Source of the DNA: Escherichia phage vB_EcoP_LNA7
DNA length: 39,592 nt
Direction: 5' to 3' (one strand)
Sequence record: OM630586.1
Shown here: one piece after another, positions 2,251 to 38,748 of the stretch
Layout of the letters: the number at the start of each line of letters is the position of its first letter
How positions within the stretch are numbered: position 1 is the first letter of the stretch
Notes under the pieces: model-generated
Seen by the model: the letters and a program-made list of their open reading frames with translations, nothing else
What the model was told of the DNA's origin: nothing
Database searches by the model: none
Made by a program: the position numbers and the translations under genes

Positions 2251-3860
2251 TGGCTGAGAAACGAACAGGACTTGCGGAGGAGGGCGCAAAGTCTGTCTAT
2301 GAGCGCTTAAAGAACGACCGTGCTCCTTACGAGACACGCGCTCAGAATTGCGCTCAGTATACCATCCCTTCATTGTTCCCTAAGGACTCCGATAACTCCT
2401 CTACAGATTATACCACGCCGTGGCAAGCTGTGGGCGCTCGCGGTCTAAACAATCTAGCGTCAAAGTTAATGCTTGCGCTCTTCCCGATGCAAACATGGAT
2501 GCGCCTTACCATCTCAGAATATGAGGCCAAACAGCTACTGAACGACCCCGACTCTCTAGCCAAGGTTGATGAGGGTCTCTCGATGGTAGAGCGTATCATC
2601 ATGAACTACATTGAGTCTAACAGTTACCGAGTGACTCTCTTTGAGGCTCTCAAACAGTTAGTCGTAGCTGGTAACGTCCTGCTGTACCTACCGGAACCGG
2701 AAGGGTCAAACTATAATCCCATGAAGCTGTACCGATTGTCTTCTTATGTGGTCCAACGAGACGCATTCGGCAACGTTCTGCAAATGGTGACTCGTGACCA
2801 GATAGCTTTCGGTGCTCTCCCTGAGGACATCCGTAAGGCTGTAGAAGGTAAAGGTGGTGAGAAGAAAGCCGATGAGACCATCGATGTGTACACTCACATC
2901 TATCTGGATGAGGACTCAGGTGAATACCTACGATACGAAGAGGTCGATGGTATGGAAGTACAAGGCTCCGATGGGTCTTACCCTAAAGAGGCTTGCCCGT
3001 ACATCCCGATTCGAATGGTTCGACTGGATGGTGAATCCTACGGTCGTTCGTACATTGAGGAATACTTAGGTGACTTACGGTCCCTTGAGAATCTCCAAGA
3101 GGCTATCGTCAAGATGTCAATGATTAGCTCTAAGGTTATCGGCTTAGTGAATCCTGCTGGTATCACCCAGCCACGCCGACTGACAAAAGCTCAGACTGGT
3201 GACTTCGTTACTGGTCGTCCAGAAGACATCTCGTTCCTCCAACTGGAGAAGCAAGCCGACTTTACCGTAGCCAAGGCTGTCAGTGACGCTATTGAGGCTC
3301 GCCTTTCGTTTGCCTTTATGTTGAACTCTGCGGTTCAGCGCACAGGTGAACGAGTGACCGCCGAAGAGATTCGGTATGTCGCTTCTGAACTTGAAGATAC
3401 TTTGGGTGGTGTCTACTCTATCCTTTCTCAAGAATTACAATTGCCTCTGGTACGAGTGCTCTTGAAGCAACTACAAGCCACGCAACAGATTCCTGAGTTA
3501 CCTAAGGAAGCCGTAGAGCCAACCATTAGTACAGGTCTAGAAGCAATTGGTCGAGGACAAGACCTTGATAAGCTGGAGCGGTGTGTCACTGCATGGGCTG
3601 CACTGGCTCCTATGCGGGATGACCCTGATATTAACCTTGCGATGATTAAGTTGCGGATTGCCAACGCTATCGGTATTGACACTTCGGGTATTCTACTCAC
3701 CGAAGAACAGAAGCAACAGAAGATGGCCCAACAGTCTATGCAAATGGGTATGGATAATGGTGCTGCTGCGCTGGCTCAAGGTATGGCTGCACAGGCTACA
3801 GCTTCACCTGAGGCTATGGTTGCTGCCGCTGATTCCGTAGGTTTACAGCCGGGCATTTAA
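2250..3860 (+). CDS. 8: gene 8 portal (head-to-tail connector) protein
   Basis: ORF 2235..3860 trimmed to ATG 2250 (MAEKRTGLAE), overlapping the TAA of 7.7; 536 aa as in T7. Confidence 0.95.
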   Translation: MAEKRTGLAEEGAKSVYERLKNDRAPYETRAQNCAQYTIPSLFPKDSDNSSTDYTTPWQAVGARGLNNLASKLMLALFPMQTWMRLTISEYEAKQLLNDPDSLAKVDEGLSMVERIIMNYIESNSYRVTLFEALKQLVVAGNVLLYLPEPEGSNYNPMKLYRLSSYVVQRDAFGNVLQMVTRDQIAFGALPEDIRKAVEGKGGEKKADETIDVYTHIYLDEDSGEYLRYEEVDGMEVQGSDGSYPKEACPYIPIRMVRLDGESYGRSYIEEYLGDLRSLENLQEAIVKMSMISSKVIGLVNPAGITQPRRLTKAQTGDFVTGRPEDISFLQLEKQADFTVAKAVSDAIEARLSFAFMLNSAVQRTGERVTAEEIRYVASELEDTLGGVYSILSQELQLPLVRVLLKQLQATQQIPELPKEAVEPTISTGLEAIGRGQDLDKLERCVTAWAALAPMRDDPDINLAMIKLRIANAIGIDTSGILLTEEQKQQKMAQQSMQMGMDNGAAALAQGMAAQATASPEAMVAAADSVGLQPGI

Positions 3861-35712: not shown

Positions 35713-37671
35713 ATGATCGTTTCTGACATCGAAGCTAACGCCCTCTTAGAGAGCGTCACTAAGTTCCACTGCGGGGTTATCTACGACTACTCCACCGCTG
35801 AGTACGTAAGCTACCGTCCGAGTGACTTCGGTGCGTATCTGGATGCGCTGGAAGCCGAGGTTGCACGAGGCGGTCTTATTGTGTTCCACAACGGTCACAA
35901 GTATGACGTTCCTGCATTGACCAAACTGGCAAAGTTACAATTGAACCGAGAGTTCCACCTTCCTCGTGAGAACTGTATTGACACCCTTGTACTGTCACGA
36001 TTGATTCACTCTAACCTGAAAGACACCGATATGGGTCTTCTGCGTTCCGGTAAGCTGCCTGGGAAACGCTTTGGGTCTCACGCTTTGGAGGCGTGGGGTT
36101 ATCGCTTAGGCGAGATGAAGGGTGAATACAAGGATGACTTTAAGCGTATGCTTGAAGAGCAAGGTGAAGAGTACGTTGACGGAATGGAGTGGTGGAACTT
36201 CAACGAAGAGATGATGGCCTATAACGTTCAGGACGTTGTGGTGACTAAGGCTCTACTTGAGAAGTTAATCTCTGACAAACACTACTTCCCCGACCAAGGT
36301 ATCGACTGGACTGACGTAGGTAACACATTCTGGCGTGAGTCTGTAGAGGCTGTCGAGCTAGAGCATAAAGCTGCGTGGCTGCTCGCTAAGCAGGAACGTA
36401 ACGGCTTTCCATTCAATACCAAAGCTATCGAAGACCTGTACGTAGAGTTGGCTGCTCGTCGCTCTGAGTTGCTCATGAAGTTGACCGAAACGTTTGGCTC
36501 GTGGTATCAACCTAAAGGTGGCACCGAAATGTTCTGCCATCCGAGGACTGGTAAACCACTGCCTAAATACCCTCGCATTAAGACACCTAAAGTTGGTGGC
36601 ATCTTTAAGAAGCCTAAGAACAAGGCACAGCGAGAAGGACGTGAGCCTTGCGAACTGGATACCCGAGAGTACGTTGCTGGTGCTCCTTACACCCCAGTTG
36701 AGCACGTGGTGTTTAACCCATCGTCTCGTGACCACATTCAGAAGAAACTCCAAGAGGCTGGATGGGTCCCTACCAAGTACACCGATAAGGGTGCTCCTGT
36801 GGTGGACGATGAGGTACTCGAAGGAGTACGTGTAGATGACCCTGAGAAGCAAGCTGCTATCGACCTCATTAAAGAGTACCTGATGATTCAGAAGCGAATC
36901 GGACAGTCTGCTGAGGGAGACAAGGCGTGGCTGCGTTACGTTCAAGAGGACGGTAAGATTCATGGTTCTGTTAACCCTAATGGAGCAGTTACAGGTCGTG
37001 CGACCCATGCGTTCCCCAACCTTGCGCAAATTCCGGGTGTACGTTCTCCTTATGGAGAGCAGTGTCGCGCTGCTTTTGGCGCTGAGCACCATTTGGATGG
37101 GATAACCGGTAAGCCTTGGGTTCAGGCTGGTATCGACGCATCCGGCCTTGAGTTGCGCTGCTTGGCCCACTTCATGGCTCGCTTTGATAACGGTGAGTAT
37201 GCTCACGAGATTCTTAATGGCGACATCCACACTAAGAACCAGATGGCTGCCGAACTGCCTACCCGTGATAACGCTAAGACGTTCATCTATGGGTTCCTTT
37301 ATGGTGCTGGTGATGAGAAGATTGGACAGATTGTTGGTGCTGGTAAAGAGCGCGGTAAGGAACTCAAGAAGAAATTCCTTGAGAACACCCCAGCGATTGC
37401 AGCACTCCGTGAGTCTATCCAACAGACCCTTGTCGAGTCCTCTCAGTGGGTAGCTGGTGAGCAGCAAGTAAAGTGGAAACGCCGCTGGATTAAAGGTCTG
37501 GATGGTCGTAAGGTACACGTTCGTAGTCCTCACGCTGCTTTGAATACCCTACTGCAATCTGCTGGTGCTCTCATCTGCAAACTGTGGATTATCAAGACCG
37601 AAGAGATGCTCGTAGAGAAAGGCTTGAAGCATGGCTGGGATGGGGACTTTGCGTACATGGCGTGGGTGCAT
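35713..37671 (+). CDS. 5: gene 5 DNA polymerase, exon 1 (653 codons)
   Basis: ORF track 35713..37722; homology to T7 gp5 stops after ...DFAYMAWVH at 37671, and the remaining 17 codons of the ORF are intron sequence. Confidence 0.9.
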
Positions 37672-38273
37672 AAACAAATTTCATTGTGCACATTAAATCT
37701 GGTGAACTCGGTGAAACCCTAATGGGGCAATACCGAGCCAAGCCATAGGGAGGATATATGAGAGGCAAGAAGTTAATTCTTGAGGCCACTGAGACTGGCT
37801 GTATCATCCCTACGTCACACAAACTTAATGCCGATGGTTATTTCAGAAAGAAAACCAATGGCGTCTTGGAGATGTATCACAGAACGGTGTGGAAGGAGCA
37901 TAATGGAGAAATACCAGAAGGCTTCGAGATAGACCATAAGTGTCGCAATAGGGCTTGCTGTAACATAGAGCATTTACAGATGCTTGAAGGTACAGCCCAC
38001 ACTGTTAAGACCAATCGTGAACGCTACGCAGACAGAAAGGAAACAGCTAGGGAATACTGGCTGGAGACTGGATGTACCGGCCTAGCACTAGGTGAGAAGT
38101 TTGGTGTGTCGTTCTCTTCCGCTTGTAAGTGGATTAGAGAATGGAAGGCGTAGAGACTATCCGAAAGGAGTAGGGCCGAGGGTGAGACTCCCTCGTAACC
38201 CGAAGCGCCAGACAGTCAACTCAAAGGCTGATGATATAGTCCGACACTCCTAGTAATAGGAGAATACAGAAAG
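37672..38273 (+). mobile_element. Group I self-splicing intron (602 nt) in DNA polymerase gene 5, carrying an HNH homing endonuclease ORF
   Basis: Exon 1 ends in U; intron ends in G; internal guide GUGCAC (37686..37691) pairs with exon end GUGCAU including the U.G wobble; R-like AGAGACUA (38152..38159) and S-like GAUGAUAUAGUCC (38230..38242) can form P7; joining the exons restores a 704-codon polymerase. Confidence 0.85.
37758..38153 (+). CDS. Intron-encoded HNH homing endonuclease
   Basis: ORF track 131 aa; EIDHKCRNRACCNIEHL HNH motif; own SD gggagg; lies entirely within the intron. Confidence 0.85.
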   Translation: MRGKKLILEATETGCIIPTSHKLNADGYFRKKTNGVLEMYHRTVWKEHNGEIPEGFEIDHKCRNRACCNIEHLQMLEGTAHTVKTNRERYADRKETAREYWLETGCTGLALGEKFGVSFSSACKWIREWKA

Positions 38274-38429
38274 GATGAAATTCAAGTAGGTTGCCGCACC
38301 GAAGAGATTGCTCAGGTGGTCATTGAGACCGCACAAGAAGCAATGCGCTGGGTTGGAGACCACTGGAACTTCAGGTGTCTTCTGGATACCGAAGGTAAGA
38401 TGGGTCCTAACTGGGCCGTATGTCACTGA
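38274..38429 (+). CDS. 5: gene 5 DNA polymerase, exon 2 (51 codons plus stop)
   Basis: Encodes DEIQVGCRTEEIAQVVIETAQEAMRWVGDHWNFRCLLDTEGKMGPNWAVCH, the canonical gp5 C-terminus, in frame with exon 1 once 37672..38273 is removed. Confidence 0.85.
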   Translation, partial: DEIQVGCRTEEIAQVVIETAQEAMRWVGDHWNFRCLLDTEGKMGPNWAVCH

Positions 38430-38448
38430 TTATATAGGAGAAATTATT

Positions 38449-38748
38449 ATGGCTATGACCAAGAAATTTAAAGTGTCCTTTGACGTTACCGCAAAGATGC
38501 CGTCTGACGTTCAGGCAATCTTAGAGAAAGACATGCTGCATCTATGCAAGCAGGTAGGCTCAGGTGCAATTATCCCCAATGGTAAACAGAAGGAAATGAT
38601 CGTCCAGTTCCTGACACACGGTATGGAAGGCTTGATGACATTCGTAGTACGTACAGCATTCCGTGAGGCAATCAAGGACATGCATGAATGGTATGCCTAT
38701 AAGGACTCCTTCAAACTCTCTCCTGCAACTGTACGGGAGGTGTTCTGA
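38449..38748 (+). CDS. 5.5: gene 5.5 protein (H-NS-binding in T7)
   Basis: ORF 38308..38748 trimmed to ATG 38449 (MAMTKKFKVSFDVTAKMPSDVQ...), 99 aa. Confidence 0.85.
   Translation: MAMTKKFKVSFDVTAKMPSDVQAILEKDMLHLCKQVGSGAIIPNGKQKEMIVQFLTHGMEGLMTFVVRTAFREAIKDMHEWYAYKDSFKLSPATVREVF

Follow-up and report, generated by a model that had tools for sequence, protein, structure and literature searches.

Gene 5, the DNA polymerase gene of Escherichia phage vB_EcoP_LNA7 (hereafter LNA7; sequence record OM630586.1), is interrupted by 602 nucleotides (nt) at positions 37672..38273 of the window, by which we mean the whole 39,592-nt stretch of DNA that was analyzed. We are nearly certain that this insert is a mobile group I intron of subgroup IA2 and the same element as that described in the polymerase genes of phages phiI and W31. 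Five independent lines of evidence support the group I assignment, which the original prediction had already put forward: a full-length match to the Rfam model RF00028, a P1-P10 fold, covariation among homologues, restoration of the reading frame together with the Pfam polymerase domain, and public genome records that annotate the gene as a two-piece join. By homology, the LNA7 element would be expected both to self-splice and to home.

The insert divides gene 5 within a catalytic motif

The list of open reading frames (ORFs) gives the LNA7 polymerase as an ORF at 35713..37722 encoding 669 amino acids (aa) with the C-terminal end KQISLCTLNLVNSVKP. The 51 codons that would be expected to follow (DEIQVG...NWAVCH) are found in the same frame at 38274..38429. 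This arrangement had been pointed out in the original prediction and is confirmed by both the ORF list and alignment to T7 gp5. Joining 35713..37671 to 38274..38429 yields 704 codons plus a stop codon, a T7-type gene 5 of exactly the length anticipated, and the joined protein is 97.3% identical to T7 gp5 (687 of 706 alignment columns, stop counted) with an ungapped exon junction. DNA alignment to the intron-less gene 5 of T7, which reads GGGTACAT|GATGAAATC across the insertion site, delimits the 602-nt insert. Because the flanking bases differ, the boundaries 37671|37672 and 38273|38274 are unambiguous and cannot be shifted. The coding parts of the gene are as follows.

35713..37671, + strand: exon 1 of the DNA polymerase gene, the homologue of T7 gene 5; codons 1-653, with ...AWVH as its last residues (ORF list, T7 gp5 alignment, Pfam DNA_pol_A)
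37720..37722, + strand: in-frame TAA that terminates the unspliced 669-aa read-through product, located in the P5 loop (sequence, ORF list)
38274..38429, + strand: exon 2, 51 codons (DEIQVG...AVCH) plus the stop codon (T7 alignment, Pfam DNA_pol_A, PDB alignment)

The junction, AWVH|DEIQ, corresponds to H653|D654 of T7 gp5 and splits motif C (VH|DE). Asp654 of T7 gp5 (Asp882 of E. coli Pol I) is a catalytic metal ligand of family A polymerases, and we take H653-D654-E655 of T7 gp5 to be the equivalent of H881-D882-E883 in E. coli Pol I. The unspliced 669-aa product should be inactive because it ends without this metal ligand. From the absence of Asp654 we soundly infer that replication would depend on splicing, as had been argued in the original prediction. 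The joined exons follow the Pfam DNA_pol_A profile up to position 380 of 381 (167.6 bits), whereas the match of the read-through product ends at 326 (profile positions 29-326 of 381, 138.2 bits). The C-terminal 110 aa of the joined polymerase align end to end with residues 595-704 of T7 polymerase in the PDB, and across this junction region a single residue differs.

A group I ribozyme core in the insert

The search with RF00028 (Intron_gpI) that the original prediction had recommended returned a match at 37662..38263 covering the full model (1-253 of 253) with a score of 44.8 bits. Its E-value was 4.4e-10 on a 751-nt stretch and 2.3e-8 on the whole 39.6-kb window, in which it was the sole Rfam match at E ≤ 0.01. 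The Rfam alignment treats the ORF region of about 400 nt as an unpaired insertion that follows a local 'P6' with poor pairing and does not put it in the P6a loop; this misplacement probably lowers the score. We built the complete P1-P10 structure by hand from the sequence. Its elements are given below, where pairing and covariation refer to the comparison of homologous introns described in the next section.

37672..38273, + strand: assigned group I intron of subgroup IA2 type, 602 nt (RF00028, T7 alignment, covariation)
37666..37691, + strand: P1, exon GUGCAU plus intron AA (37666..37673) pairing with UUGUGCAC (37684..37691) (sequence)
37677..37685, + strand: P10 guide AAUUUCAUU, pairing with the first nine bases of exon 2, GAUGAAAUU (38274..38282) (9 base pairs, bp)
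37698..37704, + strand: P3 5' strand UCUGGUG, pairing with CGCCAGA (38206..38212) (5 of 7 pairs compensatory, 100% paired)
37707..37737, + strand: P4 (37707..37713 with 37731..37737) around P5 (37717..37719 with 37725..37727) (100% paired, 4 compensatory pairs, minimum free energy (MFE) fold)
37738..37746, + strand: P6 5' strand CC (37738..37739) and P6a 5' strand CCAU (37743..37746) (4 of 6 P6/P6a pairs compensatory)
38141..38148, + strand: P6a 3' strand AUGG (38141..38144) and P6 3' strand GG (38147..38148) (covariation)
38150..38159, + strand: J6/7 and P7 5' strand, GUAGAGACUA, the 'R' element (sequence, covariation)
38160..38201, + strand: P7.1, UCC GAAA GGA (38160..38169), GUA linker (38170..38172) and P7.2 (38173..38201) (covariation; IA2 signature)
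38206..38212, + strand: P3 3' strand CGCCAGA (covariation)
38213..38230, + strand: P8 hairpin CAGUC ... GGCUG (4 of 5 pairs compensatory)
38230..38242, + strand: J8/7 and P7 3' strand, GAUGAUAUAGUCC, the 'S' element (sequence, RF00028, covariation)
38247..38262, + strand: P9 hairpin CUCCUA GUAA UAGGAG (4 of 6 pairs compensatory, 100% paired)
38273, + strand: terminal guanosine (omega G), 3' splice site (G in 16 of 16 aligned introns)

Exon 1 ends in T (37671) and the insert in G (38273). The internal guide GUGCAC at 37686..37691 pairs with the exon bases GUGCAU and forms the wobble U37671.G37686 at the 5' splice site, so that the exon-terminal U, the intron-terminal G and the P1 pairing all lie where the original prediction had them. 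The same is true of the R-like AGAGACTA at 38152..38159 and the S-like GATGATATAGTCC at 38230..38242, and of P7, in which GACUA (38155..38159) pairs with UAGUC (38237..38241); two of its five pairs are compensatory and it is 100% paired across the 16 introns compared. P2 is absent. Introns of subgroup IA2 are recognized by two additional helices, P7.1 and P7.2, which lie between P7 and P3' and are joined by G-U-A (PMC3428280), and the LNA7 intron has this P7.1-GUA-P7.2 arrangement. With the ORF deleted, the unconstrained MFE structure recovered 50 of the 54 nested pairs of the hand-built model (P7 and P10 lie outside this comparison), and the MFE of this sequence had a z-score of -3.2 against mononucleotide shuffles.

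A second, 53-aa ORF at 38092..38253 (+ strand) overlaps the 3' half of the ribozyme core, and its equivalent is annotated as 'unknown' in the record of phage K1F (K1F locus positions 2971-3123). Most likely this ORF is a false prediction that happens to lie over structured RNA.

Covariation among homologous introns

When the intron alone was compared by BLAST with 50,697 phage records, 112 matched, 54 of them covering at least 80% of its length. The original prediction had described such introns as uncommon in T7-like phages; this stands in relative terms, but at least 54 phage records carry the intron. For the analysis of covariation we removed the ORFs from the LNA7 copy and 15 further copies and aligned the cores of these 16 introns. 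The set was drawn from T7-like phages (13a, Bas102, K1F, and Salmonella and Yersinia isolates), 77-kb Gordonclarkvirinae (SU7, ECBP2 and PAS59), the 112-kb Vibrio phage Vp_R1, Edwardsiella and Klebsiella podophages, Aeromonas phage PT2 and the 180-kb Salmonella phage Arash.

Standard pairs occupied 98.1% of 928 pair cells, the P3/P7 pseudoknot included, and compensatory changes on both sides were seen in 29 of 59 pairs. None of 500 shuffles matched the observed values (0/500), and sliding the 3' partners by 1-3 columns left only 36-46% paired with 4-8 compensatory pairs. Twelve helices were scored, with P10 scored separately, and compensatory changes were found in all of them but the invariant P7.1. 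The P1 helix was 96% paired, its outermost pair being A-U in place of G-C in 4 of 16 homologues, and the U.G wobble was present in 15 of 16. In 11 of 15 copies, P10 extended over 5-9 bp from the first base of exon 2; it was weak in two K1F-type introns, with a 4-bp match only, and in Vibrio phage Vp_R1, where the match is offset by 5 nt. P10 also covaries with a synonymous change in exon 2 (UUUCAUU/GAUGAAA in LNA7 versus UCUCAUU/GAUGAGA in 13a-type introns). The high degree of pairing, the compensatory changes and the tracking of exon 2 by P10 therefore indicate that the fold is real and under selection.

The copy in Citrobacter phage NS1 (MN715150.2, positions 577-1779) has a P7 3' strand changed from UAGUC to UACUC and an altered P7.1, and the sequence beyond its terminal G is unlike exon 2. 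This copy may be decayed or rearranged, or the record may be misassembled close to its start.

The intron carries an HNH endonuclease gene

The original prediction gave no coordinates for an HNH ORF; we located one in the P6a loop, preceded by a candidate ribosome-binding sequence.

37748..37754, + strand: Shine-Dalgarno-like GGGAGGA, putatively functional, 3 nt upstream of the endonuclease ATG (sequence)
37758..38153, + strand: intron-encoded HNH homing endonuclease gene, 131 aa, in the P6a loop (ORF list, Pfam, PHROG)

The ORF lies between the P6a strands (37743..37746 and 38141..38144), and its last codons and UAG stop overlap P6a', P6' and J6/7. Its product matches Pfam HNH_3 (E = 3.5e-16, 59 bits against a cut-off of 24.8, residues 40-75) and PHROG 6254 (HNH endonuclease, E = 1e-47). 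The protein is 99% identical to that of Bas102, 87% to that of 13a, 79% to that of K1F and 54-63% to its counterparts from other families of phages. It also shares 48% identity over 95 aa with T3 gp5.3 (E = 2e-31). T7 gp5.3 was rejected as a relative (E = 4.3); the relative is T3 gene 5.3. A sequence search of the PDB with the HNH protein found no chain at E ≤ 0.1, the best match being a chaperonin at E = 0.13.

Proposed mechanism and alternative explanations

In the mechanism that we propose, the intron would be transcribed within the gene 5 messenger RNA (mRNA) and would fold into the P1-P9 ribozyme core. A free guanosine held in P7 would attack the phosphodiester 3' of U37671, which would be positioned in P1 by its wobble with G37686. 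P10 (37677..37685 with 38274..38282) would align exon 2, the terminal G38273 would occupy the G site, and the 3' OH of exon 1 would attack at 38273|38274, ligating the exons. Spliced mRNA would then give the 704-aa polymerase with motif C (VH|DE) restored, and unspliced RNA only the 669-aa product without Asp654. In co-infecting relatives that lack the intron, the 131-aa HNH enzyme would nick or cut gene 5 close to the insertion site, and repair would copy the intron in (homing).

Some observations weigh against the identification of the insert as the phiI/W31 group I intron. The RF00028 score lies below the curated gathering score of 50, and a scan of the whole window against Rfam at gathering thresholds gave no match; the cut-off is a database convention and not a biological criterion. 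In addition, the presumed sameness with the phiI and W31 introns (AY769989 and AY769990) draws on insertion site, subgroup and ORF position as these are reported in a citing paper (PMC3428280).

The alternative that survives best, though we consider it improbable, is that the element is a group I intron in decay, either spliced inefficiently, dependent on a protein cofactor or merely tolerated, or furnished with an inactive endonuclease. The sub-threshold Rfam score would fit such a state, as would the expectation that homing endonuclease genes decay after fixation (reviewed in PMC3984707), and at least one homologue, the NS1 copy, does show an altered P7 strand. In LNA7, however, no helix is disrupted, and both the R and the S element agree with the consensus. 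The ORF has the full length of 131 aa, as in 13a and K1F, its HNH motif is intact and its product is 99% identical to the Bas102 protein. Moreover, since the gene is essential, an allele that failed to splice should not be maintained in a lytic phage.

It is very unlikely that the polymerase is instead split by a free-standing HNH gene into two polypeptides, one of 669 aa and a short C-terminal piece, that assemble without any splicing. The records of SU7, ECBP2 and Edwardsiella phage DT115P1 do annotate two polymerase coding sequences (CDSs) flanking an HNH gene, but these are automatic gene calls. An ORF with a GTG start at 38316 covers part of exon 2 in LNA7, yet this is the only ORF that does (38316..38429, 37 aa) and it excludes both D654 and E655, while inspection by eye of the sequence upstream of 38274 revealed neither an ATG nor a Shine-Dalgarno sequence. 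The sequences on either side of the HNH gene make up a complete and heavily covarying group I core, and the U.G wobble, the terminal G and P10 fall exactly where the T7 frame is restored. Two points lead us to reject the split polymerase: the lack in exon 2 of any plausible start from which D654 would be translated, and the covariation.

Removal of the insert as an intein, or its ribosomal bypass, in place of RNA splicing has practically no standing: interruption of a conserved catalytic motif is typical of inteins, but Pfam found HNH_3 and no intein domain in the insert ORF, the RNA structure evidence is decisive, and both routes are ruled out by the gene 5 frame, which stops 16 codons into the insert (37720..37722).

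With the group I intron as the favored explanation, the correct annotation of gene 5 is join(35713..37671,38274..38429). Without this join an essential polymerase appears truncated at 669 aa, minus its motif C aspartate, and the 131-aa HNH gene appears intergenic.

Related introns in other phage groups

Outside the T7-like phages, intron DNA from SU7, PAS59 and ECBP2 is 66-68% identical to that of LNA7 over the whole intron, and that of two Vibrio phages (Vp_R1 and SJSY21) 69-71% identical over about 80% of it; in Edwardsiella phage DT115P1 and Klebsiella phage RCIP0053 the 3' core alone can be aligned. The start of exon 2 is similar across these copies (GAYGAR). In the Gordonclarkvirinae and Vibrio copies the P1 guide has been retuned, with GUGCAU as the guide that faces exon AUGCAU. 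In most of these records the polymerase is annotated as a pair of CDSs with no stated relation to each other. Arash (OQ632216, 180 kb; locus positions 1349-1620) harbors a related group I intron that scores 58.9 bits, above the gathering score; it has no HNH ORF, has a P2 hairpin and differs in its splice junction sequence.

We tentatively suggest, with somewhat more doubt than conviction, that a single intron lineage moved between unrelated phage groups, keeping the same VH|DE site and a homologous HNH ORF in P6a while its guides were retuned to the synonymous codons of each host. Its carriers would be T7-like Autographiviridae, 77-kb Gordonclarkvirinae and 110-kb Vibrio Grimontviridae (Vp_R1), with related introns in Edwardsiella and Klebsiella podophages. 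If such spread across families is true and undescribed, LNA7 would form part of a natural series for the adaptation of a homing intron to new exon contexts. The diverged copies offer a compact data set of co-variation between guide sequence and exon.

Several of these loci showed further features. The Arash intron is flanked by one CDS named 'DNA polymerase nu' and another named 'DNA polymerase theta', and a CDS labeled 'hypothetical protein' runs across its ribozyme core; the two polymerase CDSs are probably one spliced gene. The polymerase gene of Aeromonas phage vB_AhaP_PT2 (OM716005) contains two RF00028 matches (36.4 and 39.0 bits; locus positions 1455-2091 and 2533-3156), the second at the site of the LNA7 intron and the first about 1 kb upstream, and the record lists the polymerase fragments as separate CDSs. 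In Klebsiella phage RCIP0053 a transfer RNA match (RF00005, 35.3 bits) lies in an unannotated stretch at locus positions 2871-2948, about 1.2 kb downstream of the polymerase intron.

Genome context

The 39.6-kb LNA7 window is about as long as a complete T7-like genome, but its start point differs from that of the T7 record, with gene 5 located at 35.7 kb in LNA7 and at 14.4 kb in T7. Gene 5.3 is missing from LNA7, in which the gene 5 stop is followed after 20 nt by the gene 5.5 homologue, beginning at 38450 (38430..38460 examined). At this place T7 carries an unrelated gene 5.3 (locus 2484-2840) and T3 a free-standing HNH gene (locus 1066-1371). The first 25 kb of LNA7 are about 93% identical to T7 records, and the intron region is 98% identical to phages PDP351P2 and Bas102. 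This contrast in identity suggests possible mosaicism around gene 5.

Comparison with known introns

The LNA7 intron is already known, being of a published type and annotated in public genomes. The phages phiI and W31, close relatives of T7, carry IA2 introns in the polymerase gene at Pol I site 881 (Bonocora and Shub 2004, as reported in PMC3428280). According to the same account, these introns have an HNH ORF in P6a and splice both in vivo and in vitro, and the W31 enzyme is named I-TslI, which bears out the statement in the original prediction that HNH-bearing group I introns occur in T7 relatives. As far as the description in PMC3428280 extends, the phiI and W31 introns (Bonocora and Shub 2004, J Bacteriol 186:8153) share with that of LNA7 the T7-type gene 5, the site after the motif C histidine, the IA2 arrangement with P7.1-GUA-P7.2 and an HNH ORF in P6a with its own ribosome-binding site, and by that description we found no difference in kind.

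Closer copies are available as sequence. Intron DNA from Bas102 (PQ850620), 13a (EU734174) and K1F (DQ111067) is 98.8%, 87.3% and 80.8% identical to that of LNA7, with the 131-aa ORF and the splice junctions as in LNA7, and all three records enter gene 5 as two joined segments and list an endonuclease CDS within it. K1F has been said in print to carry a 'putative group I intron' (PMC4925675). The join lengths in 13a and Bas102 are consistent with the removal of a homologous 601 nt. The LNA7 intron, at 602 nt, has one additional base in the P1 loop, and because of this extra base P10 is lengthened to 9 bp.

T3 gene 5.3 encodes a homologous HNH endonuclease, in this case free-standing and directly downstream of an intron-less gene 5; at 101 aa the protein lacks about 37 C-terminal residues of the intron-encoded one. 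Bonocora and Shub are said to have found that T3 gp5.3 and I-TslI cut intron-less polymerase genes at an identical position. A review (PMC3984707) cites Bonocora and Shub 2009 as the basis of 'collaborative homing'.

The LNA7 intron is thereby a further copy of a well-studied mobile intron that serves as a model for the combination of intron and homing endonuclease, and it opens no new question in itself. More distant counterparts occur in SPO1, SP82 and Bastille (I-HmuI, I-HmuII and I-BasI) and in cyanophage Pf-WMP3 (I-PfoP3I), which likewise have IA2 introns with an HNH ORF in a family A polymerase gene (PMC3428280). Their insertions are at Pol I site 674 or 676, in contrast to site 881 in LNA7, and the Pf-WMP3 intron resembles that of LNA7 in having no P2.

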